Positions 2,515-17,493 of a stretch of 64,000 bases of DNA are shown piece by piece; the first letter of the stretch is position 1; each line of letters opens with the position of its first letter. Position numbers and translations under genes: made by a program. Origin of the DNA: Escherichia coli. Its GTDB lineage: Bacteria > Pseudomonadota > Gammaproteobacteria > Enterobacterales > Enterobacteriaceae. Under the pieces are notes generated by a model. That model was not told the origin of the DNA, did not search any database, and saw nothing but the letters and a program-made list of their open reading frames with translations. The stretch is taken from assembly GCF_013315695.1 (NCBI RefSeq), contig NZ_CP054356.1. The stretch is one strand, 5' to 3'.

Positions 2515-2948
2515 TCAACGTTCTTTAGCTCCTTCCACTAACAGCCGACCTATCTCAAACACCGCAGCTGACCGTCCCGACTTCACCGCTTCGGCTTTCT
2601 GTCCCTCAACAAACCAGTTATTACCGTCCGTTCGGACCAACTCAAACATCCATGACATATCGTAAACGTGTTCCGGGATCAGCGACCCTTCTCCGGCCAG
2701 AATACCCGCCGTTATGGAGTGGTTGCCCCCGTGCACAAAGCCAATACGCCAGGGCAACCACAGGTCAACATAGTGGTTGTTTTTATCTTGCTTCCACGGC
2801 TTCCCCTTATGGGTTCCAATGCGTGAAACGTTATCGATATAGCGTGGTAGGCTCCAAGGCCACGGCAGCACTATGTCGCTTGCCAGCGACAACGGATAAT
2901 CAGCGCCGTTCATCTCACACTCTTTCATCTTTTCGTAAGATTGTATTT
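2515..2948 (-). pseudogene. 3' portion of an unknown gene interrupted by the Tn5403-like insertion (5' portion at 6829-7060)
   Basis: After removing 2949-6828 (element plus one TATTT copy) the minus-strand frame runs continuously from a GTG start at 7060 to the stop at 2515, about 221 aa; hand-translated junction ...KGLTQIQSYEKMKECEMNG.... Confidence 0.55.
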
Positions 2949-2981
2949 GGGCTCCGTTTGGGAAACGGAAAATATTGTACG

Positions 2982-5969
2982 TTAAGGCTGTTTTTTGTAC
3001 TGACTGACATCAACTGCTCGCAAAGGACGATACTTCCCTTCAGCCAGCTTCTTATTGTTTTTCCAGATATAGTCCCCTGTCAGATTAATGTGCTCCCAGC
3101 CCAGCGGAGACAAATGTGACAACAATTGCTCATTAATATGTAGCCCTTTCTTTTTCAGCAGGTTAATGGCGTTTTCTATATATACGGTATTCCACAAAGT
3201 GATTGCGGCAGTGAGCAGCGTAAGCCCACTGGCGCGGTAACTCTGGTTTTCAATACCACGATCCCTTATTTCTCCCAGACGATGCATGAAGACAGCTCTG
3301 GCAAGGGCATTCCGGGCTTCCCCTTTGTTCAGACCTGCCTGAACCCTACGACGAAGCGCCGGATCGCGGAACCAGTCCAGCATGAACAGTGTTCGCTCAA
3401 TACGACCAATTTCTCTTAACGCCTTAGCAAGGCCATTCTGTTTCGGATAACTGGTCAATTTTTTCAGCATCAGAGAAGCGGTCACTGTTCCCTGTTTTAT
3501 TGAGGTCGCCAGTCTCAGAATTTCATTCCAGTGTATTTTTATCTCTTTGATATTCAGGGGGGTTGTGGAGATAATTGACTGTAGAGCAGGATAGTTATCA
3601 GCTTTACCTTGAATAAACAAACGTTTGTCATGCAGATCCCGGATCCTTGGGGCAAAAGCGAATCCCAGCAGATGCATTAGTGCAAAAACATGCTCCGTGA
3701 AACCTGCTGTATCGGTGTAATGTTCCGTTATATCAAGGTCACTTTCGTGATACAGAAGACCATCAAGTACGTGGGTGGAATCACGAACACGACTGATTAC
3801 TTTGGTATAAAACGGACTATATTGATCTGAGATATGCGTATAAAACTGCACCCCAGGTTCCTGACCGTACTTCAAATTAACCTGACCGGCATAGCGCCCA
3901 TGACTGCCAACCCTAAAATTCTGGCCGTCAGAGGATGAGGTGGAACCGTCTCCCCATAATGCCGCCAGCGGTCGTGACTTCTGGGCATTAACCAGTTCTG
4001 CCAGTGCAGCAGAGTACGTTTCATCACGGATGTACCATGCTTGTATGTTTTCCAGCGAAGCTCGTGTGGTTCCCGGACAGGACTCTGCCATTTTTTCCAA
4101 CCCTAGATTGATGCCGTCCGCCAGGATAGTGGTTAGTAGTAAACGATTATCCTGAGGACGGATTAGCGGATTCTTAAGATGAGTAAAATGTCGCGAGAAG
4201 GCAGTCCATCGCTCGACTTCATCAAGTATCTCTGTAATTTTGGGGTGCGGTAGCATGTTGTAAATCAGGTCGGCCAGGGGAGAGACTGTTGAAGGAACGC
4301 TGTTATCCAGTGGGGTGATCTTTACACCTTTATCTGAAATATCCACATCAGGAAGCTCCCCTGCGACAGCCATTGCGTTAACTTCCTCCAGACGGGAGGC
4401 CAGTAGAGTCAGTCTGGCATTAAGATAAGCCCCGCATTCTGTGCCAACAGGTAAATTTAATAGGTTATTATTTAATAACTTTTCGAAATCATCGTTAGGC
4501 ATAAGATAATCATCAAAGTTTTTGTAGCGCCGGGAGCCCCTGACCCAGATATCACCCGCCCGCAGCGCCCCCTTTAGCTCATTCATTGCGCAAATTTCAT
4601 AGTATTGTCGGTCAATGCCTGAGGGGGTGACCACCATCTTTCTCCAGCTCTCAGGAATGAAATCCAGTGGTGCCGATGCAGGAACCTTTCGTAGCTGTTT
4701 ACGGTACATATCACGAATAGTTTCAAGGGCATCATTAAGCGGCAACGCTGCCGAAGTGGCTCTCAGTTGCAGGGCCGATAGAAAACGAAAAGAATATTTG
4801 CGCAATGTACTGAATTTTTCGGTAATAAGATGAAGCGGCTCAAAATTATCCTTACGTGCAAGAAGCTTTGTTTCCTCCAGACTGGCGACAAAATCGTCCC
4901 ACGGTAACACTCGTTCAATAGCAGACAGAGGATCTTCGCCTGCATTGCGTGCATCCAGGATAGCCTGGCCAACAGAAACATACTGACGTAACTTTTGCTG
5001 TATCAACTTGCCCGTTTTCTGAAGACGCTCAGCCTGCTGATGTTTTGCCCGACTGAACATGCTGCCTAGAATACGTTCATGCAGTTCTATAATTTCATCA
5101 ATGATTGTGGCTCTGGCCTCAGTCAGTACACAGACCATCGTTGCGTATCGACGAGCAGGGGAAAAATCAGCCAGATCGCGACTGCTCATTTTGCGGCCCT
5201 CACGCGCGAGTTTCAGCAATCGGTTCTGGTGAACGGTTCTCTCCACTCCTTCCGGCAGCGCCAGAGCTTCAATAGCGTTAAGGCGGTCAATGTGTTGCAG
5301 GACATTCTTTCCATTGATTTTCCCTGGAGGTTGAAGCAGCCACGTCAAACGGGATATTTGTTTTTCATTTGTCACCAACAGGGCATCAAGCGCAGATTTA
5401 TGCGTGATATCAAGGTGCGCATTCAGCGTTGTATACACCGTTTTATCACCCAGTGTCATTGCTTCTGCACAGGTACGTTCCAGAACATCAATGCCTGGAA
5501 TAATAATTCGCTGTTGATGCAGGTACTTTAGTAACTCCTCTGCGATAAGTATGCCTCTGTCCGTTCTGGTAGACAGAGGGAGCAGATGCCGGATACATTC
5601 TTTCTGAAGTGCACCGTTAAAGGCTTTCAGTTCAAGATATCGATAAAGTTCCCTCATATGCTCACGTCTGGTGGTATCACGACCGGAAACGTATTCCTGC
5701 CAAAGTTCTGCTGATAACTTAAGTCGAGCGCCAATGGTTTTTAGCAATTTTGCGGGTGGGGATGATTTTTTATCCGGGGCAAACCCAATACTTTTCAGAT
5801 AACAGAGAAGAACGGCAAAACCAAACCGGCTGGCAGGTTTACGGTGAGCATTGATAATTGCCAGATCCTGCTCACTGAAATACGTCATTCGAGTCAGTGT
5901 TAACTCATCGTCTGGCAATGCCAGTAATGATTCTCTTTCCGATAGAGAAAGAATCTGCCTCCTTGCCAT
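2982..5969 (-). CDS. tnpA: Tn3-family transposase TnpA, 995 aa, intact
   Basis: Uninterrupted 995-aa ORF with Tn3-family transposase length and organisation, distinct in sequence from the Tn2/Tn3 TnpA at 9012-12017. Confidence 0.9.
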   Translation of the reverse strand: MARRQILSLSERESLLALPDDELTLTRMTYFSEQDLAIINAHRKPASRFGFAVLLCYLKSIGFAPDKKSSPPAKLLKTIGARLKLSAELWQEYVSGRDTTRREHMRELYRYLELKAFNGALQKECIRHLLPLSTRTDRGILIAEELLKYLHQQRIIIPGIDVLERTCAEAMTLGDKTVYTTLNAHLDITHKSALDALLVTNEKQISRLTWLLQPPGKINGKNVLQHIDRLNAIEALALPEGVERTVHQNRLLKLAREGRKMSSRDLADFSPARRYATMVCVLTEARATIIDEIIELHERILGSMFSRAKHQQAERLQKTGKLIQQKLRQYVSVGQAILDARNAGEDPLSAIERVLPWDDFVASLEETKLLARKDNFEPLHLITEKFSTLRKYSFRFLSALQLRATSAALPLNDALETIRDMYRKQLRKVPASAPLDFIPESWRKMVVTPSGIDRQYYEICAMNELKGALRAGDIWVRGSRRYKNFDDYLMPNDDFEKLLNNNLLNLPVGTECGAYLNARLTLLASRLEEVNAMAVAGELPDVDISDKGVKITPLDNSVPSTVSPLADLIYNMLPHPKITEILDEVERWTAFSRHFTHLKNPLIRPQDNRLLLTTILADGINLGLEKMAESCPGTTRASLENIQAWYIRDETYSAALAELVNAQKSRPLAALWGDGSTSSSDGQNFRVGSHGRYAGQVNLKYGQEPGVQFYTHISDQYSPFYTKVISRVRDSTHVLDGLLYHESDLDITEHYTDTAGFTEHVFALMHLLGFAFAPRIRDLHDKRLFIQGKADNYPALQSIISTTPLNIKEIKIHWNEILRLATSIKQGTVTASLMLKKLTSYPKQNGLAKALREIGRIERTLFMLDWFRDPALRRRVQAGLNKGEARNALARAVFMHRLGEIRDRGIENQSYRASGLTLLTAAITLWNTVYIENAINLLKKKGLHINEQLLSHLSPLGWEHINLTGDYIWKNNKKLAEGKYRPLRAVDVSQYKKQP

Positions 5970-6135
5970 ATAGTTATCCTTGTTAATTATTTAGTACGTT
6001 ATTTTTGATGAAAAGGTTATTGCATAAGGGTACACCCTGATGCGAGATATAAAATGTGACCTCATACAAATAATGACATAACCTATATGCGATAGAATAT
6101 ATGCAACAACCTAAATGCGACAATGCGGTGAAAAA
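5970..6135. promoter_or_regulatory. Putative res site and divergent promoters between tnpA and tnpR of the Tn5403-like element
   Basis: Intergenic position between divergently transcribed tnpA and tnpR, as in other Tn3-family elements; subsites not mapped. Confidence 0.35.
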
Positions 6136-6777
6136 ATGTTCATCAGAGCTTATTTAAGGGCGTCAACAGAAGATCAGTTTGCAGATCGAGCAAAAGAGAT
6201 GCTGGAACAGTTCGTCCAAGAACGGGGGCATAAAATTGCCAGTTATTATCGGGAGAACATAAGCGGTACAAAACTTGACCGTCCGGAACTGAAACGCTTA
6301 CTGATGGACAGTCACCGTAATGATATTTTGCTGGTCGAGCAGATAGACCGCCTGACCCGACTGAGTAACAGCGACTGGATAACGCTGAAAAAGCAGATAG
6401 AACAACACGAACTGCGGATTGTCAGTCTGGATGTTCCAACATCATGGCAAGCCCTGTCAGATAAAGATCCTTCACAATCAGATCCGATTACCCGCGCAGT
6501 GATAACTGCAATAAATAATATGCTTATAGACCTGATGGCCGCGATGTCGCATAAGGACTGGCTGAGTCGTCGCCAACGCCAAAAACAGGGAATTGAACGA
6601 GCTCATACGTTGGGTAAATACCGGGGAAAACAGGCCGATCAGGAACGTCATCAGAAAGTGTTGTACTACAGACAAGTAAAAAAACTCAGCATTAGAGAAA
6701 CAGCAGATGCAACGGGCTACAGCACTTCGCAGGTTTGTCGCATTCAGGCTCTCTATAAAGAGGTTAAACCTGATTAA
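6136..6777 (+). CDS. tnpR: Serine recombinase resolvase TnpR, about 213 aa
   Basis: N-terminal FIRAYLRASTEDQ motif with the catalytic serine region and a C-terminal HTH; start chosen at the internal ATG at 6136. Confidence 0.85.
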   Translation: MFIRAYLRASTEDQFADRAKEMLEQFVQERGHKIASYYRENISGTKLDRPELKRLLMDSHRNDILLVEQIDRLTRLSNSDWITLKKQIEQHELRIVSLDVPTSWQALSDKDPSQSDPITRAVITAINNMLIDLMAAMSHKDWLSRRQRQKQGIERAHTLGKYRGKQADQERHQKVLYYRQVKKLSIRETADATGYSTSQVCRIQALYKEVKPD

Positions 6778-6828
6778 AAAACAGCCTTAACGTACAATAT
6801 TTTCCGTTTCCCAAACGGAGCCCTATTT

Positions 6829-7060
6829 GGGTAAGTCCCTTAAAGAAGAACTCCTGCGGGGTCATATCCGGGCGGGCATCTGTTCCCTCCTCAGCTACCG
6901 CCAGCAAGAAATCACTCTGTACTGGCCGCACGATAGCGCGAATGAGATCTGGTAGCGCCTTAACGGGTAGTTTCTCTGCCACAGAAAGCAGATGATTGAA
7001 GCGTTTTTTTTCATTGGCTATAGTTGCTTTATCTTTCTTGTTTCGGTTCCAGAACATCAC
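6829..7060 (-). pseudogene. 5' portion of the unknown gene interrupted by the Tn5403-like insertion (continues at 2948)
   Basis: GTG start at 7060 with a GGAGGG Shine-Dalgarno about 9 nt upstream on the minus strand; reading frame enters the transposon IR at 6828. Confidence 0.55.
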
Positions 7061-7247
7061 TGTCTGTAGCCCTCCTTATCGTGATCAGGATGATGGTTTT
7101 GGGGTCTGACGCTCAGTGGAACGAAAACTCACGTTAAGGGATTTTGGTCATGAGATTATCAAAAAGGATCTTCACCTAGATCCTTTTAAATTAAAAATGA
7201 AGTTTTAAATCAATCTAAAGTATATATGAGTAAACTTGGTCTGACAG

Positions 7248-8120
<873 letters not shown>

Positions 8121-8290
8121 TCAATATTATTGAAGCATTTACCAGGGTTATTGTCTCATGAGCGGATACATATTTGAATGTATTTAGAAAAATAAACAAA
8201 TAGGGGTTCCGCGCACATTTCCCCGAAAAGTGCCACCTGACGTCTAAGAAACCATTATTATCATGACATTAACCTATAAAAATAGGCGTA

Positions 8291-9011
<721 letters not shown>

Positions 9012-12000
9012 ATGCCCGTTGACTTTCTGACCACTGAGCAGACTGAAAGCTATGGCAGATTCACCGGTGAACCGGATGAGCTTCAGCTGGCACGATATTT
9101 TCACCTTGATGAAGCAGACAAGGAATTTATCGGAAAAAGCAGAGGTGATCACAACCGTCTGGGCATTGCCCTGCAAATTGGATGTGTCCGTTTTCTGGGC
9201 ACCTTCCTCACCGATATGAATCATATTCCTTCCGGCGTCCGGCATTTTACCGCCAGACAGCTCGGGATTCGTGATATCACCGTTCTTGCAGAATACGGTC
9301 AGAGGGAAAATACCCGCCGTGAGCATGCAGCGCTGATACGTCAGCACTATCAGTATCGTGAATTTGCCTGGCCCTGGACATTTCGCCTTACCCGTCTTTT
9401 ATATACCCGGAGCTGGATAAGCAACGAACGTCCTGGCCTGCTTTTCGATCTGGCGACAGGGTGGCTTATGCAACATCGTATTATTCTCCCCGGAGCCACT
9501 ACGCTGACCCGGTTGATTTCAGAGGTAAGGGAAAAGGCGACGTTGCGCCTGTGGAACAAACTGGCACTGATACCGTCAGCCGAACAGCGTTCACAGCTGG
9601 AGATGCTGCTGGGGCCAACTGATTGCAGCCGCCTGTCTTTACTGGAATCACTGAAAAAGGGCCCTGTGACCATCAGTGGTCCGGCGTTTAATGAAGCAAT
9701 TGAACGCTGGAAAACTCTGAACGATTTTGGCCTGCATGCTGAAAACCTGAGTACACTCCCGGCTGTGCGCCTGAAAAATCTCGCACGTTATGCTGGTATG
9801 ACTTCGGTGTTCAATATTGCCAGGATGTCACCGCAGAAAAGGATGGCGGTTCTGGTTGCCTTTGTCCTTGCATGGGAAACGCTGGCGCTGGATGATGCAT
9901 TGGACGTTCTGGACGCCATGCTGGCCGTTATCATCCGTGACGCCAGAAAGATTGGGCAGAAAAAACGGCTCCGCTCGCTGAAGGATCTGGATAAATCTGC
10001 ATTGGCGCTCGCCAGCGCATGTTCGTACCTGCTGAAAGAAGAAACACCGGACGAATCGATTCGTGCTGAGGTGTTCAGCTACATCCCAAGGCAAAAGCTG
10101 GCTGAAATCATCACGCTTGTCCGTGAAATTGCCCGGCCCTCAGACGATAATTTTCATGAAGAAATGGTGGAGCAGTACGGGCGCGTTCGTCGTTTCCTGC
10201 CCCATCTGCTGAATACCGTTAAATTTTCATCCGCACCTGCCGGGGTTACCACTCTGAATGCCTGTGACTACCTCAGCCGGGAGTTCAGCTCATGGCGGCA
10301 GTTTTTTGACGACGCACCAACGGAAATTATCAGTCGGTCATGGAAACGGCTGGTGATTAACAAGGAAAAACATATCACCCGCAGGGGATACACGCTCTGC
10401 TTTCTCAGTAAACTGCAGGATAGTCTGAGGCGGAGGGATGTCTACGTTACCGGCAGTAACCGGTGGGGAGATCCTCGTGCAAGATTACTACAGGGTGCTG
10501 ACTGGCAGGCAAACCGGATTAAGGTTTATCGTTCTTTGGGGCACCCGACAGACCCGCAGGAAGCAATAAAATCTCTGGGTCATCAGCTTGATAGTCGTTA
10601 CAGACAGGTTGCTGCACGTCTTTGCGAAAATGAGGCTGTCGAACTCGATGTTTCTGGCCCGAAGCCCCGGTTGACAATTTCTCCCCTCGCCAGTCTTGAT
10701 GAGCCGGACAGTCTGAAACGACTGAGCAAAATGATCAGTGATCTACTCCCTCCGGTGGATTTAACGGAGTTGCTGCTCGAAATTAACGCCCATACCGGAT
10801 TTGCTGATGAGTTTTTCCATGCTAGTGAAGCCAGTGCCAGAGTTGATGATCTGCCCGTCAGCATCAGCGCCGTGCTGATGGCTGAAGCCTGCAATATCGG
10901 TCTGGAACCACTGATCAGATCAAATGTTCCTGCACTGACCCGACACCGGCTGAACTGGACAAAAGCGAACTATCTGCGGGCTGAAACTATCACCAGCGCT
11001 AATGCCAGACTGGTTGATTTTCAGGCAACGCTGCCACTGGCACAGATATGGGGTGGAGGAGAAGTGGCATCTGCAGATGGAATGCGCTTTGTTACGCCAG
11101 TCAGAACAATCAATGCCGGACCGAACCGCAAATACTTTGGTAATAACAGAGGGATCACCTGGTACAACTTTGTGTCCGATCAGTATTCCGGCTTTCATGG
11201 CATCGTTATACCGGGGACGCTGAGGGACTCTATCTTTGTGCTGGAAGGTCTTCTGGAACAGGAGACCGGGCTGAATCCAACCGAAATTATGACCGATACA
11301 GCAGGTGCCAGCGAACTTGTCTTTGGCCTTTTCTGGCTGCTGGGATACCAGTTTTCTCCACGCCTGGCTGATGCCGGTGCTTCGGTTTTCTGGCGAATGG
11401 ACCATGATGCCGACTATGGCGTGCTGAATGATATTGCCAGAGGGCAATCAGATCCCCGAAAAATAGTCCTTCAGTGGGACGAAATGATCCGGACCGCTGG
11501 CTCCCTGAAGCTGGGCAAAGTACAGGTTTCAGTGCTGGTCCGTTCATTGCTGAAAAGTGAACGTCCTTCCGGACTGACTCAGGCAATCATTGAAGTGGGG
11601 CGCATCAACAAAACGCTGTATCTGCTTAATTATATTGATGATGAAGATTACCGCCGGCGCATTCTGACCCAGCTTAATCGGGGAGAAAGTCGCCATGCCG
11701 TTGCCAGAGCCATCTGTCACGGTCAAAAAGGTGAGATAAGAAAACGATATACCGACGGTCAGGAAGATCAACTGGGCACACTGGGGCTGGTCACTAACGC
11801 CGTCGTGTTATGGAACACTATTTATATGCAGGCAGCCCTGGATCATCTCCGGGCGCAGGGTGAAACACTGAATGATGAAGATATCGCACGCCTCTCCCCG
11901 CTTTGCCACGGACATATCAATATGCTCGGCCATTATTCCTTCACGCTGGCAGAACTGGTGACCAAAGGACATCTGAGACCATTAAAAGAGGCGTCAGAGG

Positions 12001-12017
12001 CAGAAAACGTTGCTTAA
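9012..12017 (+). CDS. tnpA: Tn3-type transposase TnpA, about 1001 aa, intact
   Basis: Translation from MPVDFLTTEQTESYGRFTGEPDELQLARYFHLDEADKEF... matches the recalled Tn3 TnpA; ORF ends just inside the terminal IR. Confidence 0.9.
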   Translation: MPVDFLTTEQTESYGRFTGEPDELQLARYFHLDEADKEFIGKSRGDHNRLGIALQIGCVRFLGTFLTDMNHIPSGVRHFTARQLGIRDITVLAEYGQRENTRREHAALIRQHYQYREFAWPWTFRLTRLLYTRSWISNERPGLLFDLATGWLMQHRIILPGATTLTRLISEVREKATLRLWNKLALIPSAEQRSQLEMLLGPTDCSRLSLLESLKKGPVTISGPAFNEAIERWKTLNDFGLHAENLSTLPAVRLKNLARYAGMTSVFNIARMSPQKRMAVLVAFVLAWETLALDDALDVLDAMLAVIIRDARKIGQKKRLRSLKDLDKSALALASACSYLLKEETPDESIRAEVFSYIPRQKLAEIITLVREIARPSDDNFHEEMVEQYGRVRRFLPHLLNTVKFSSAPAGVTTLNACDYLSREFSSWRQFFDDAPTEIISRSWKRLVINKEKHITRRGYTLCFLSKLQDSLRRRDVYVTGSNRWGDPRARLLQGADWQANRIKVYRSLGHPTDPQEAIKSLGHQLDSRYRQVAARLCENEAVELDVSGPKPRLTISPLASLDEPDSLKRLSKMISDLLPPVDLTELLLEINAHTGFADEFFHASEASARVDDLPVSISAVLMAEACNIGLEPLIRSNVPALTRHRLNWTKANYLRAETITSANARLVDFQATLPLAQIWGGGEVASADGMRFVTPVRTINAGPNRKYFGNNRGITWYNFVSDQYSGFHGIVIPGTLRDSIFVLEGLLEQETGLNPTEIMTDTAGASELVFGLFWLLGYQFSPRLADAGASVFWRMDHDADYGVLNDIARGQSDPRKIVLQWDEMIRTAGSLKLGKVQVSVLVRSLLKSERPSGLTQAIIEVGRINKTLYLLNYIDDEDYRRRILTQLNRGESRHAVARAICHGQKGEIRKRYTDGQEDQLGTLGLVTNAVVLWNTIYMQAALDHLRAQGETLNDEDIARLSPLCHGHINMLGHYSFTLAELVTKGHLRPLKEASEAENVA

Positions 12018-12132
12018 CGTGAGTTTTCGTTCCACTGAGCGTCAGACCCCGTTTTCATTCTAATGGTGTAGTAGTTTCACGTCACGCGCACGTGCATATT
12101 CTTCGAAAGCTTCGGCGTTAGCCGGTCAACCA

Positions 12133-12584: not shown

Positions 12585-13148
12585 TCATCCCCCTACAACC
12601 ACTCCCATTCGTTTAAGTATTTTTAAACCTGCTTCCTGTGGTATCTTTATAGATAAGATCCTGTTTATCTCAGGATTTATATCGAGACCTTCTGTCATTG
12701 AAAAATCACAGTGAGACAAATCAGAATGTCTGAACTCTGTATTATTAAACTCCGAACCAGTAAAATCAGATTTACGAAGGTCTGTTTCCTCAAATAAACA
12801 ATCACGGAAGCGACAGGATAAAAAAATAGATTTCTGTAACCGTAAACTAATAAAATCAACAAATCTCAAATCACAATTTACAAGAGAAAAAGTACAGGGA
12901 AACATAATGTCTGCTGCATTTACTCCTTGTAATAAACAATCTTTGAATTCACAGTCAATAAGTTTAAAAAAATTAAGTTTTAAATTCTTTATTGAGCAGT
13001 TTACGAAGCGACATTTTTCGAACTCACAATCGCGAAAGTTAAAGTTGTCAAGCTGTATTCGTTCAAATATACAATTGTAATAATTTACACCTGATAATTC
13101 ACTTTCACTGAGGTGTCGTTTTGTGATTCTTTTTTCTATTATATCCAT
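12585..13148 (-). CDS. mcbG: Microcin B17 immunity protein McbG (pentapeptide-repeat DNA gyrase protector), 187 aa
   Basis: Pentapeptide-repeat-rich 187-aa protein at the last position of the mcbABCDEFG array. Confidence 0.85.
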   Translation of the reverse strand: MDIIEKRITKRHLSESELSGVNYYNCIFERIQLDNFNFRDCEFEKCRFVNCSIKNLKLNFFKLIDCEFKDCLLQGVNAADIMFPCTFSLVNCDLRFVDFISLRLQKSIFLSCRFRDCLFEETDLRKSDFTGSEFNNTEFRHSDLSHCDFSMTEGLDINPEINRILSIKIPQEAGLKILKRMGVVVGG

Positions 13149-13151
13149 GTG

Positions 13152-13883
13152 TCAGTCTCCTGTTCCCATAACTTCTTTAATAAATGCCTTTTCTGGAGTT
13201 GTTTCATTATTGGATTGAATAAAATCACTCATATCAGAATAACGATTTATACTATTTTTTGAAAGCATATAGAAGGGGATTTTATCTCTTGTTAATTCAT
13301 CAAAAATATGAGTTGAGAAAAATACCGTTTTCCCGTCAGCGGTGATCTTATTTATCAGTTCCCATAACATCATTCTGTACTGAATATCAATGCCTACAGT
13401 TGGTTCATCCAGTAAAAATAAACGGGCATTTTTGCAAAGCGTTAGCATCAAAGATATGATAAGCCAACGCTTCTCTCCATAACTTACCGTGTAAGTCCTT
13501 TTACGTCTTATTTTATCATAGCGAATGAAAAAATTATCATTCCATTTATGATTAAGCTCTGTCCATGCCTGTTTTTTAGTTAACTTATTGAAGCAGCAAA
13601 TCAAATCAAGAACCTCCTCATTCCTTAGTGTACCTGAAAGATTTATGACTTGAGGTAGACTTACTAATTCTCCACCAGAGAAATTTCGCTTGAGGGTCCC
13701 TTCATAATTACTGACTCCGCCCCTGATAAGGTTAAAAAGAGTGGTCTTCCCGGCTCCATTTTCTCCAAGCAGACCTATCAACTCTCCCTGCTCAATCTTA
13801 AGCGACAGATTATTGAAAACAGGGGGTAAATTTACTTTATATGAAAAGCTCAGAGAGTTGATTTCTAAAAGAGGTATGGTCAT
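13152..13883 (-). CDS. mcbF: Microcin B17 export ABC transporter ATP-binding protein McbF
   Basis: Walker A motif GENGAGKTT and ABC signature region; operon position. Confidence 0.85.
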   Translation of the reverse strand: MTIPLLEINSLSFSYKVNLPPVFNNLSLKIEQGELIGLLGENGAGKTTLFNLIRGGVSNYEGTLKRNFSGGELVSLPQVINLSGTLRNEEVLDLICCFNKLTKKQAWTELNHKWNDNFFIRYDKIRRKRTYTVSYGEKRWLIISLMLTLCKNARLFLLDEPTVGIDIQYRMMLWELINKITADGKTVFFSTHIFDELTRDKIPFYMLSKNSINRYSDMSDFIQSNNETTPEKAFIKEVMGTGD

Positions 13884-14605
13884 TGAGAACTCCAGACTGG
13901 CTCAGTTTTGAAGGTTAGTGCTGAAATAATACTTATGATTAACATTATACTATAGAAAAATATCGTCATCAGAGACAACTCCTGGTCTGACTGGAGTATT
14001 GTAGAATAGATGGCGATAGGATTAACCTGATTTATCCAGTAAACGATCCCCTCATTATATTTTAATGATACAATTCCTGATACCATACAGACAGTTATTA
14101 ATACAGAATAGATAGTGCTGGCTGTTTGGAATGTGACTCTGAACGATGCCATGAAAGTGAGTGAAACCATCATAAATGCATTTATGTATATCGATTTTAA
14201 AATAATCATTACTATTTGATAATCTGGACTTGCCTGGAATCCTGTTAGTACGACTAAAATGAAAAAAAACACATACAAAATAGACATGATAAGTGAGGCT
14301 ATTAATTGAGAACGAATAAATAATAGTCGACCATCCATATTATGCACGAAGGTAGCAATAAAACCACTTTCTCTTCTTCCGACCAGATACAGACAGTAAT
14401 TAAACAGAACAACAGAAAAAGAAATGTAGCCTACAAACCATGATATTTGTTTTCCGAGCCATGCTGTATCACCATAATGAAGTTCAATTTCATTGAAATG
14501 AAGGAAAAAGAACAACACTGTAGGTGACATAATTGTCCATATTAAGCTGAAAGGGGTTCTGATTTGTTCCATCAGAAAAATTATCGCCATTTTTAATGTA
14601 ACCAT
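13880..14605 (-). CDS. mcbE: Microcin B17 export permease McbE, 241 aa
   Basis: Polytopic hydrophobic protein, start overlapping the mcbF neighbour; operon position. Confidence 0.85.
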   Translation of the reverse strand: MVTLKMAIIFLMEQIRTPFSLIWTIMSPTVLFFFLHFNEIELHYGDTAWLGKQISWFVGYISFSVVLFNYCLYLVGRRESGFIATFVHNMDGRLLFIRSQLIASLIMSILYVFFFILVVLTGFQASPDYQIVMIILKSIYINAFMMVSLTFMASFRVTFQTASTIYSVLITVCMVSGIVSLKYNEGIVYWINQVNPIAIYSTILQSDQELSLMTIFFYSIMLIISIISALTFKTEPVWSSQ

Positions 14606-14614
14606 TTGTTATCC

Positions 14615-15805
14615 TTATGGGAATGGTACCATCTTTGATTCTCTGACTTTAATACCGTCCCCGGTATGGTAAATTTTATTATTAATGTTTATTGCACCTG
14701 AGTTATTCATATGAAGGAAAAAATCAGGGCTTACTATTTTTGTGTACCAGACAAGGCTGTTACTTACTCTTTCCCTGGCATAGTAAACAAAAATATTATC
14801 AGAAATTTGTTGAAGATAGTTTAATAAATTTGTGTCTGACGTAATATTTTCCTCAAGCGTTAACTTGACATCATCAGACAGTAGTACCGTATTTTCACAC
14901 AAATCCGTAAACGACTCGTACTTGTTGCATGACATAAAGTGACGCTGGTAACTATCAATAATGTCATCATCAGTATAACCGCCAATAAGAAAGTTGTGCA
15001 GGCATATATACGATTGCCACAATTCCACTACGGATTTACAAAGTGCTTTTTTCAGACTATTAGCATAGGATAATCCGGTACTGTATTTTATTCGACTGAT
15101 TTTGTTTTTTGTGCCATACAGGGTTAGTACTGCGTGTCCAGGAGCTCCGGGCAGGGTGATATCGAAAATCCTGATATCTCCTTCTGACCTGAGAGCCAGT
15201 AAAATCTCATCTATATGATTTATGCCTGTTACTATTTCACTGGATATTTCAGTATTGGCTTTTCCCTGTAACCAGTAAAGAAGGAGGGACTGTCTCTCCA
15301 TAAATTCACACAAGGAACCTTCTATGGCATCGTTCAAACTACCATGAAAGCTACATCCGCATGTATCTCTGTCAGGATAAAATTTCAGATCATCTGCAGC
15401 GGTTATATTGTCGAGTGCAATTATGACTGCAGGTATTTCTTGTTGTTCAAGGCTAAACAGATTAAAGGCTCTGACCGTTTTAAATTTATGGGTTATGATT
15501 TCATCGCGGGTCAGTGATGAGATCTGAAAAAATGCTTCGGTAAAAGCCTTTGCAGCAGATGGAGGCATCATCTCATATAATGTTTTCTGACCACCGGTGA
15601 CTATCTCATTAAAAAAATGACGGCGTTCAAAATATTCACCTATTGCCCCCTGAATTGACTTCAGAGTTTCACCGGCCGCGCTGGCTGGTGTAATACGCTC
15701 ATAGTCCCATATCTGAGAAAACGTTGGCATATTTCTGTTCAGTTTTGGACTCATGGCCATTGTGGCCGGCCATGCGGACATAAGGTTACTGTAGACATTT
15801 ATCAT
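14615..15805 (-). CDS. mcbD: Microcin B17 synthetase McbD (YcaO-type cyclodehydratase), 396 aa
   Basis: Size and position match McbD in the canonical operon. Confidence 0.85.
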   Translation of the reverse strand: MINVYSNLMSAWPATMAMSPKLNRNMPTFSQIWDYERITPASAAGETLKSIQGAIGEYFERRHFFNEIVTGGQKTLYEMMPPSAAKAFTEAFFQISSLTRDEIITHKFKTVRAFNLFSLEQQEIPAVIIALDNITAADDLKFYPDRDTCGCSFHGSLNDAIEGSLCEFMERQSLLLYWLQGKANTEISSEIVTGINHIDEILLALRSEGDIRIFDITLPGAPGHAVLTLYGTKNKISRIKYSTGLSYANSLKKALCKSVVELWQSYICLHNFLIGGYTDDDIIDSYQRHFMSCNKYESFTDLCENTVLLSDDVKLTLEENITSDTNLLNYLQQISDNIFVYYARERVSNSLVWYTKIVSPDFFLHMNNSGAININNKIYHTGDGIKVRESKMVPFP

Positions 15806-16604
15806 CGTTTACATCTCCAAAAAACTGAACGATCAGTGGCGCTACAGTCCTCTGATCCAGATTCATTGTTTTTGCTACGTATGAATCGGTATATCCCGCC
15901 CATACCCGGTTTTTCAGTCCTATTTGATCTGCAACCAATACTGCGTTCTGATACATCGAACCTGTTTCCATTAAGGCCATCCGGTATCCTCTGTAGCGAT
16001 ATTTGAACAAAGCTTTTTCAAAAATAATGCAATAGACGAGAGCAAAATGGGGTTTACCAAGACGTTCCGAATCCCCACCGGACAGGCTTCGGTAGAGTGA
16101 CTGAGTATTACATGTAGCAACAGGTTCCAGTGCCTGACTTAGCGGCAGGTAGTGATAAACATTAGTTCCTGCCTGCCAGTTTTCTGTATTTTCAGATAAT
16201 CTGCATAAAAAAACTTCAATCGGGTACAATGCCCCCCCAGAAGGATAAGGTCTTCTTACAGAGCCAGGATCAGGTGAGCTGAATGCATTGACTAATAACT
16301 TTTCAATAGTACGAATGGAAAGTTTATTTTTGTCGCAAAAGTTTATTCCTGATGGGAGCCTTTCACGACTAAAATTATGTGATGAGGATATGTTTATTAC
16401 GGAGCTGAAACCTGGCCTGAAGAGAACTTCTTTATTTTCAAATTTCTCCAGATGGGCAAGAGGTACCGCGGACACGAAAGTTCGTTCAGCAAATTCGGGG
16501 AGGGAAGCAAAGTTACCTCTGACATGAAAATCTTTAACAATGGCCAGAACTTCAGGATCTGTGTAATGCGTTACTTCCACTAAAGAGAGTTCGTGTTTTG
16601 ACAT
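15786..16604 (-). CDS. mcbC: Microcin B17 synthetase McbC (FMN-dependent dehydrogenase), 272 aa
   Basis: Size and position match McbC. Confidence 0.85.
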   Translation of the reverse strand: MSKHELSLVEVTHYTDPEVLAIVKDFHVRGNFASLPEFAERTFVSAVPLAHLEKFENKEVLFRPGFSSVINISSSHNFSRERLPSGINFCDKNKLSIRTIEKLLVNAFSSPDPGSVRRPYPSGGALYPIEVFLCRLSENTENWQAGTNVYHYLPLSQALEPVATCNTQSLYRSLSGGDSERLGKPHFALVYCIIFEKALFKYRYRGYRMALMETGSMYQNAVLVADQIGLKNRVWAGYTDSYVAKTMNLDQRTVAPLIVQFFGDVNDDKCLQ

Positions 16605-16605
16605 G

Positions 16606-17493
16606 TTATCTCTCCAGACAGCTGCAAGCCTGCCAGTGAATTACCGGCTCTTTACATAAAATACAGGTGATTAAATCAGCGCTAACAGATGACATAAAGT
16701 TATCGACATGACTTTTAACCAGTGAAGTACCTGTCAACTCCTGAAGTCGCCGTTTTATTAAATGATAGCTGAATCCTCTTTCTGATTCGCCTAAAGCCAA
16801 TGCTGGTAGTGTCATTTGGTATTTTTTCAGTAACTGAAGTAAGTTTGCCCAGGACATTTCGTTACGTCTGAAGCTTTTTTCTTCCCTGCTCAGCCATCTC
16901 TCTATATGACAAAAATGGCAGGGAGTACCAAGATCAGGTGAATATACTCCATCTATCCTGAATGACTCCTTTAGGTAGTAGCTTTGGATGAAGGCAACAC
17001 CAGGGTTACTTTCAAATTTTGAATAGATTCTTTTTACAATGTCTGAATGATAGTTTTCGAGATGTAACCAGATTAGTGTTGAATCGCTCACATTAATATT
17101 ATTATCTTTTATATCAATGATATGAGAAACAAAAACACCATCAGATTTCCATTGTTCCCGGGCATTACTGAAAAGATGTGGAACATCGCTTATTATGACT
17201 GAGTTTACCCAGAGAGGTGATGTTTTCGTTTTATTTATCACGCCTGTGGTAATAAGAAACTCTTTGCCCTTGTCTTTATCAATAAGCGATTCGTCCAGTA
17301 GTTTATCAAGGAGGTATTCAGAAATAATACCCTGTTTGGATCGTAGGCTTTCGAGTACTTTTTTCATTCCCTCATGTGTAATGTCTACTGAAGAAATGTA
17401 GGTAATAAGCAGGGTCTTTGTATTTCTGGAAATTATCTCAAACGGCAGAATATTGATCATATCTTTTCCTTTTTTAATATCAGGGAGCACCAT
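16606..17493 (-). CDS. mcbB: Microcin B17 synthetase McbB (zinc-binding scaffold/cyclodehydratase subunit), 295 aa
   Basis: Size and position match McbB; Cys-containing C-terminus. Confidence 0.85.
   Translation of the reverse strand: MVLPDIKKGKDMINILPFEIISRNTKTLLITYISSVDITHEGMKKVLESLRSKQGIISEYLLDKLLDESLIDKDKGKEFLITTGVINKTKTSPLWVNSVIISDVPHLFSNAREQWKSDGVFVSHIIDIKDNNINVSDSTLIWLHLENYHSDIVKRIYSKFESNPGVAFIQSYYLKESFRIDGVYSPDLGTPCHFCHIERWLSREEKSFRRNEMSWANLLQLLKKYQMTLPALALGESERGFSYHLIKRRLQELTGTSLVKSHVDNFMSSVSADLITCILCKEPVIHWQACSCLER

Follow-up and report, generated by a model that had tools for sequence, protein, structure and literature searches.

FipA, encoded on the IncN plasmid pKM101, inhibits conjugation of RP4 through the coupling protein TraG, and it also blocks T-DNA transfer by Agrobacterium, as reported in Getino et al. 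2017 (PMC5696584) with reference to Santini & Stanisich 1998 and Maindola et al. 2014. Here we describe a FipA-like gene in a 64,000-nucleotide stretch of Escherichia coli DNA (contig NZ_CP054356.1), which is called the window below. The gene lies on the minus strand between 2515 and 7060, where it is split by one Tn3-family transposon and closely preceded by another, Tn2. Judged from its sequence, the rebuilt open reading frame (ORF) is probably, at roughly 75%, a plasmid-borne member of the FipA/DUF6710 family, that is, a gene of inter-plasmid competition (‘fertility inhibition’).

Two other groups of inhibitors are relevant to the comparison. Osa of pSa/R388 and FiwA of RP4 have a ParB/sulfiredoxin (Srx) fold (PF22162), and they too are small proteins of plasmids that reportedly block the transfer of rival substrates of type IV secretion systems at the coupling-protein step. 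The profile hidden Markov models of FipA and Osa/FiwA are unrelated (Getino et al. 2017, PMC5696584). PifC of F and Tir of R100 are encoded by IncF plasmids, the same plasmid group as that of the window, and their reported target is IncP transfer (PMC5696584). They are not homologous to the gene described here, however, PifC being of a different family (PMC5696584).

Reconstruction of the interrupted gene

The minus-strand ORF is broken by a 3,875-bp Tn3-family element at 2949–6823, which is flanked by a TATTT target-site duplication with its left copy at 2944–2948 and its right copy at 6824–6828. When 2949–6828 is deleted in silico, 2515–2948 becomes joined to 6829–7060, making a minus-strand ORF of 666 nt. 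Its 221-aa translation is the same at each residue as the one proposed in an earlier account of this DNA made from its letters alone (the sequence-only reading). The GTG start at 7060 and the GGAGGG Shine-Dalgarno sequence that were proposed along with it were both found, the latter at 7070–7075 on the minus strand. It is 9 nt upstream of the GTG and 12 nt upstream of an ATG at 7057, which is the codon next after the GTG.

The 5′ fragment of the gene (6829–7060, minus strand) contains codons 1–77 and the first base of codon 78. In its present state, this fragment runs into the transposon end and makes a 98-aa ORF (6764–7060). The 3′ fragment (2515–2948, minus strand) contains the remainder of codon 78 through codon 221 and the stop, and encodes a conserved alpha/beta domain with a GGNHS motif. 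The window’s copy is a null allele, as the insertion at codon 78 severs this conserved C-terminal domain.

Intact forms of the gene exist naturally, both in PLSDB and in complete E. coli plasmids. An ancestral locus of 2,466 nt was made by deleting both transposons together with one copy of each duplication. In PLSDB, this sequence is matched in a single piece at 100% identity by at least 27 plasmids, and 64 plasmids match over 80% or more of its length (for example, NZ_CP014112.1, which is annotated). Many complete E. coli plasmids contain the 666-nt ORF, whole and at 100% identity. Because natural intact loci match at 100%, the ORF is not a product of chance and the reconstruction is not an artefact. 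An alternative frame for the intact loci is excluded by their annotation with the Prokaryotic Genome Annotation Pipeline and by the conservation of the family.

Relationship to FipA

The sequence-only reading left the protein in an unknown family, but the family is recognizable. The rebuilt protein matches Pfam DUF6710 (PF20457) at an E-value of 1.3e-48, with residues 13–216 aligned to model positions 8–200 of 205. In BLASTP with FipA of the IncN plasmid pRSB206 (AEW28930.1), 100 of 200 residues are identical (50%; E-value of 5e-77). The same 50% match is given by many IncN plasmids, in which the submitters named the gene fipA, and two relatives in UniRef bear the name ‘Fip’. The identical intact protein is present in RefSeq as WP_001535733.1, a ‘DUF6710 family protein’. 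As the gene has been catalogued already, the ‘unknown’ family is a known one with one experimentally characterized member.

The family is large. The gene was found by tblastn in 1,701 PLSDB plasmids, and the family profile retrieved 1,122 cluster representatives (clustered at 50% identity) at E-values up to 1e-3. When 126 diverse homologues were aligned, the Pfam scan matched DUF6710 only. The rebuilt protein had no match in NCBIfam, PADLOC (0 families at E-values up to 1) or PHROGs, and neither the single protein nor the family profile retrieved anything meaningful from the PDB sequences. The term ‘DUF6710’ was not found in the literature searched, and PMC7434980 is without content on FipA.

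Homology to FipA of the IncN pKM101/R46 type extends across nearly the whole protein, the two share a Pfam family and conjugative plasmids as carriers, and the motifs LPWPW, NH, GGNHS and FEIGR are common to both. The rebuilt protein differs in having ~13 additional N-terminal residues, and its gene differs in location, as it is placed between the replicon/toxin–antitoxin (TA) region and the microcin B17 operon, outside the tra region. On the other hand, in an IncN-type plasmid, a relative with 87% identity overlaps the end of a MobF relaxase gene, which is the classical fipA position after traI.

Several points weigh against assigning the gene to FipA-like competition. Identity to the sole characterized member is only 50%. 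The gene here is away from the canonical FipA position directly downstream of the MOBF relaxase gene traI. The step at which the protein would act is taken from FipA literature known through secondary citation. Moreover, some distant homologues occur in chromosomal defence islands instead of conjugative modules, so the role of the family may exceed IncP fertility inhibition.

If the homology to FipA holds for function as well, the intact protein would act in the donor cytoplasm and block transfer of co-resident rivals, such as those of the IncP/RP4 type or the VirB/D4 type. The block would be at the coupling-protein (TraG/VirD4) step and would leave its own plasmid unaffected. Loss of the gene would then matter to the plasmid only in the presence of a rival. 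Since no cost would arise without one, the insertion would most likely be neutral and tolerated, and neutral loss is the most economical account of it.

Intact copies of identical sequence occur commonly on IncFII-type F-like microcin-B17 plasmids of E. coli, which MOB-suite types as IncFIA/IncFIC and which have an IncFII-family RepA. The annotation value of the comparison lies there, as the gene called ‘hypothetical’ or ‘DUF6710’ on these common plasmids is a FipA homologue. Such plasmids are therefore probably armed against rivals of the IncP type, and this isolate has lost the weapon. Databases already contain the gene, the family and the intact allele, and there is nothing unusual about the Tn3-family insertion that disrupts the gene. 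For this window, the finding amounts to the routine inactivation, by a transposon, of an accessory plasmid gene that is catalogued in its intact form.

Incidentally, the location invites comparison with tir of R100. As tir lies between repA and pemI, its position would be analogous to that of the present gene, which follows the FII repA and adjoins a TA pair. Identity with tir was rejected, as the R100 gene in that interval bears the annotation of a CPBP-family intramembrane protease.

Genomic contexts of the family

A small number of family loci were inspected for their contexts, and the gene stands alone in each. It is placed after the relaxase gene in IncN-type plasmids, in maintenance regions near TA pairs, in integrase-bearing elements and in defence islands. 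Such stand-alone occurrence fits a conflict or competition gene, leaving room for a wider role against mobile genetic elements.

On two Pseudomonas chromosomes (L010, 3724–7705; L016, 7001–10800), DUF6710 homologues of ~43–48% identity adjoin an operon of a type III cyclic-oligonucleotide-based anti-phage signalling system (CBASS). The operon consists of SMODS, bacterial HORMA, AAA and RNase_T genes, and BrxR, a Cap17-like protein and a Gabija-like OLD-TOPRIM/UvrD pair are encoded nearby. DUF6710 might accordingly be a general stand-alone defence against mobile elements or phages, with IncP inhibition as one manifestation, and the plasmid copy would then shield host or plasmid from incoming DNA instead of disabling a co-resident rival. 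Other homologues adjoining a YobI-ATPase gene, a DUF4145 gene or integrase-bearing elements, as well as the enzyme-like look of the conserved polar residues (described below), point the same way as these two genomes. However, no PADLOC model and no PHROG matches the protein, and the only experimental data on the family concern conjugation. An island neighbourhood is also guilt by association, here from few inspected contexts. We regard general defence as unlikely.

The neighbouring TA genes bear on a different idea. A TA-like pair occupies 1927–2479 on the plus strand, with an 87-aa upstream ORF followed by a 99-aa RelE/ParE-family toxin, so that a RelE/ParE-type pair does adjoin the gene where the sequence-only reading had placed a ParDE-like one. 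The FipA-like gene could be imagined as a third component of this maintenance module. Besides the adjacency here, a 97%-identical copy stands beside a different RelE/ParE–NadS pair, and a Burkholderia homologue on a Rep3 plasmid is near YefM/YoeB and ParAB. But the gene is convergent with the TA pair and separate from it, the IncN and Pseudomonas homologues have no TA neighbour, and the TA partners vary with the context, as expected for unrelated accessory cargo. Membership in the ParDE module was rejected on the grounds of orientation and non-conserved neighbours, there being no co-oriented operon, and we give it next to no credence.

The 87-aa ORF (1927–2190) is presumed to encode the antitoxin. 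It has no NCBIfam match and a marginal PHROG match, and it is a hypothetical protein in RefSeq. The 97%-identical copy is on NZ_AP027831.1 (L022, 2580–3887), where it is truncated at nt 375 and has a 3′–5′ exonuclease gene as a neighbour in addition to the RelE/ParE–NadS pair. As this copy is beside a different TA pair, the gene moves between accessory regions of plasmids.

Predicted structure and conserved residues

An AlphaFold2 model built on a 32-sequence alignment has a mean predicted local distance difference test score (pLDDT) of 94.3 and a predicted template modelling score (pTM) of 0.89. It consists of an N-terminal hairpin of two long helices (3–30 and 33–58) and a C-terminal alpha/beta domain. 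Since the insertion falls at codon 78, the start codon is left with the N-terminal hairpin only. In two alignments, W109, N135/H136, P143, G152-N153-H154-S155, G165, G186, E209, G211 and R212 are conserved family-wide, and D132 and D174 are nearly invariant. The conserved residues are all encoded by the detached 3′ fragment (2515–2948). The conserved polar positions (N135/H136, G152-N153-H154-S155, E209 and R212, with D132 and D174) are in the predicted alpha/beta domain, and they suggest a pocket for ligand binding or catalysis more than they do a passive plug.

In a structure search, the closest neighbours of the DUF6710 model were ParB/Srx domains, and a Foldseek search of the model against the PDB gave no significant match. 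The elements are ordered as beta 137–142, beta 146–151, V-H-G-G-N-H-S, helix 153–162 and the strand ‘IPEHV’ at 171–174. This order fits the ParB/Srx core. The motif of ParB is GERRxR, which is visible in the Spo0J sequence that was used as a query.

Other signature motifs of the superfamily, which bind phosphate and end in Arg, are FGGCHR in Srx, DGQQR in GmrS and DGQHR in DndB (PMC4619093). The DUF6710 motif V-x-G-G-N-H-S, at a beta-to-helix turn, resembles F-G-G-C-H-R of Srx and F-T-D-G-M-T-R of Osa, and it keeps the Gly-Gly and the His. It does not end in Arg as the signatures do, having an invariant Ser instead.

The ParB/Srx lead is attractive because the sequence-unrelated fertility inhibitor Osa has that fold. 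Sequence comparisons did not extend it. With hhalign, probabilities were below 2% in each of the comparisons with Osa (Osa_R388), a 7-sequence Osa-family alignment and a 120-sequence ParB alignment, and likewise below 2% with human sulfiredoxin and with the N-terminal domain of Spo0J, for both of which sequences entered by hand were used. The Pfam scan of the 126 members found no second domain and no ParBc match. DUF6710 thus has no detectable sequence relationship to Osa/FiwA, and its N-terminal helical hairpin is extra to them. Because all sequence-level tests were negative, the ‘ParB/Srx-like core’ of the model is a structural lead and not membership. Nevertheless, the predicted fold, the invariant GGNHS and the Pseudomonas defence-island setting together may offer a mechanistic handle on FipA, and they make the gene a candidate single-gene anti-plasmid defence module.

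Repeated insertion at the locus

Tn2, a Tn2/Tn3-type transposon of 4,950 bp with 38-bp inverted repeats, occupies 7101–12050 and is flanked by GTTTT at 7096–7100 and 12051–12055. The distance to the gene start, previously put at ~40 bp, was found to be 36–40 nt. The same arrangement is also annotated in NZ_CP074408.1 and NZ_CP054381.1, and the Tn2 junction is common to 20 complete E. coli genomes, with an annotated DUF6710 coding sequence under the match in the 10 listed. The junction of the inner insertion, on the other hand, was not found in any other record of PLSDB or of the complete E. coli genomes. It is likely that Tn2 was inserted first, in a shared lineage, because 20 genomes share its junction. 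The cryptic element probably followed in this isolate alone, as the inner junction is absent from all those other records.

Insertions are not limited to these two. Within ~0.7 kb of the same backbone, five independent Tn3-family insertions were found, including those of the window. They are Tn2 at −40 in the window’s lineage, the cryptic element at nt 232 in the window itself, a resolvase–transposase element at ~nt 327 that has no blastn match to the window’s element, a related cryptic element at nt 336 (90% and 74% identical across two aligned parts) and a second, independent Tn2 at nt 563. In addition, an IS3-family element is inserted at nt 540. The loci with an interrupted gene are L021 (NZ_CP196522.1, 3501–5071), L023 (6001–10157), L024 (382–4830) and L020 (NZ_AP027791.1, 3501–5445). 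Frameshift alleles exist as well (for example, P0065, with 104 member sequences).

For a gene hit twice, the sequence-only reading had offered two explanations. One was a gene that burdens or poisons its host, in which case selection would have knocked out both promoter and coding sequence. Two elements struck the locus in this plasmid, and the further disrupted alleles in public data, whether by the IS3-family element, the second Tn2, the Tn3-family elements at nt 336 and ~327 or frameshifts, would add to such a case. The idea fits poorly, however, because the gene is essentially whole in most of its carriers. It is present in 130 of 5,426 complete E. coli genomes, and at least 80% of it is in one piece in 115 of the 130, mostly at 100% nucleotide identity. 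Even where Tn2 lies upstream, the listed genomes have the annotated coding sequence at the match. Furthermore, no paired immunity or antitoxin gene accompanies it, the adjacent TA pair being convergent, and the family is widespread as a single gene. Toxicity is thus unsupported, and we consider it very improbable.

The other explanation was an insertion hotspot. Tn3-family elements might prefer the region irrespective of gene function, by virtue of AT-rich pentanucleotides downstream of the IncFII origin or of a fork-associated preference, and this would be compatible with neutral loss of a FipA-like gene. The five insertions within ~0.7 kb and the AT-rich duplications of both elements in the window (TATTT and GTTTT) speak for it. 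But the count covers the gene and the DNA just upstream of it, and survivorship gives the same pattern, as only insertions in non-essential DNA are ever seen. The IS3-family element, which moves by another transposition mechanism, struck the gene too. What stands of the hotspot claim is the recurrence of independent insertions in and near the gene, whereas tolerance in a dispensable gene explains them equally well. The cluster suggests either a regional target preference or one of the few insertion-tolerant places on an F-like plasmid. Of these, the regional preference appears possible, though short of an even chance.

A broader proposal can be formulated, in which DUF6710 is a highly divergent, hitherto overlooked branch of the ParB/sulfiredoxin fold, Osa/FiwA and FipA, both acting at the coupling-protein step, share a scaffold of the nucleotide-binding or nuclease type, the same single-gene module works beside CBASS in chromosomal defence islands as a general effector against plasmids or other mobile elements, and the stretch downstream of the IncFII origin is a true Tn3-family hotspot. 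As a joint claim it is speculative, and we would rather doubt it than hold it.

The cryptic element

The inner element (2949–6823) contains tnpA and tnpR only. Its terminal inverted repeats, of 48 bp and perfect, are at 2949–2996 and 6776–6823 (GGGCTCCGTTTGGGAAACGGAAAATATTGTACGTTAAGGCTGTTTTTT). The gene tnpA (2982–5969, minus strand) encodes a Tn3-family DDE transposase of 995 aa, which scores 1146 bits with NCBIfam NF033527 (cutoff of 500) and matches a PHROG transposase. The gene tnpR (6115–6777, plus strand) encodes a serine recombinase/resolvase of 220 aa, as seen from serine recombinase matches and from the annotation ‘recombinase family protein’ in homologous elements. DDE transposase, serine resolvase, long inverted repeats and 5-bp duplication are all present, in agreement with the earlier assignment of the insert to the Tn3 family.

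Long inverted repeats with an inner ...ACGTTAAG and an AT-rich 5-bp duplication liken the insert to cryptic tnpA–tnpR transposons of this family (Tn5403 type) and to Tn2. It has no identical match in PLSDB. Its nearest full-length relatives there are 94.8% identical (E. albertii plasmids) and 87.8% identical (Klebsiella), and they are annotated as Tn3 family transposase and recombinase without an element name. The label ‘Tn5403-like’ of the sequence-only reading is thus a tentative one.

Candidate upstream promoters and transcription

A candidate ancestral promoter was found on the intact locus L007 and then mapped to window coordinates, where it spans 12057–12085 on the minus strand. It has a −35 element GTGACG (12085–12080), a 17-nt spacer and a −10 element TAGAAT (12062–12057). 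This GTGACG-17-TAGAAT, with 9 of 12 consensus bases, is the only sigma-70-like match upstream of the gene, and it is not significant, as the region has 2 such matches and 1.4 are expected from shuffles. The Tn2 duplication starts one base past the candidate −10 element, so that 4,955 bp, consisting of Tn2 and the duplicated 5 bp, now separate the candidate promoter from the gene. It is plausible from this arrangement that the native promoter was severed by Tn2.

Transcription could reach the gene from within Tn2. blaTEM-1 (7248–8108, minus strand) reads toward the FipA-like gene in the same orientation, and its end is 187 bp short of the start of that gene. In a scan of the interval between the two, no terminator was called; a hairpin, AAGGATCT-N6-AGATCCTT followed by TTTGAT, is visible there. 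A sigma-70-like CTGTCA-17-TATACT is located at 7219–7247 on the minus strand, inside Tn2 just past the blaTEM stop, and points outward to the FipA-like gene. If functional, it could stand in for the displaced native promoter.

Overlapping the candidate −35 element, an imperfect palindrome, CACGTCACGCGCACGTG, is present at 12072–12088, and in the intact locus a scan marked it as resembling a plus-strand terminator. Its role could be that of an operator, or of a terminator for a convergent or neighbouring transcript.

Surrounding plasmid regions

The IncFII replicon context that had been described for the locus was found as claimed. Directly upstream of the FipA-like gene, the mcbB–G ORFs of the microcin B17 operon are at 12585–17493 on the minus strand. 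They correspond to McbB, a SagB-type dehydrogenase, YcaO, McbE, an ABC ATPase and the pentapeptide-repeat protein McbG, with the identities taken from the annotation of near-identical plasmids.

Outside the inner insertion, the window and pSCU-175-2 are collinear at 99.9%. Between 1 and 2948, all 25 mismatches to this plasmid are within 825–1108 (284 bp), which covers the 3′ end of repA and the part just downstream, and the remaining 47 kb has 31 mismatches only. Such a distribution gives 825–1108 the appearance of a small patch of recombination within the IncFII replicon/origin region.

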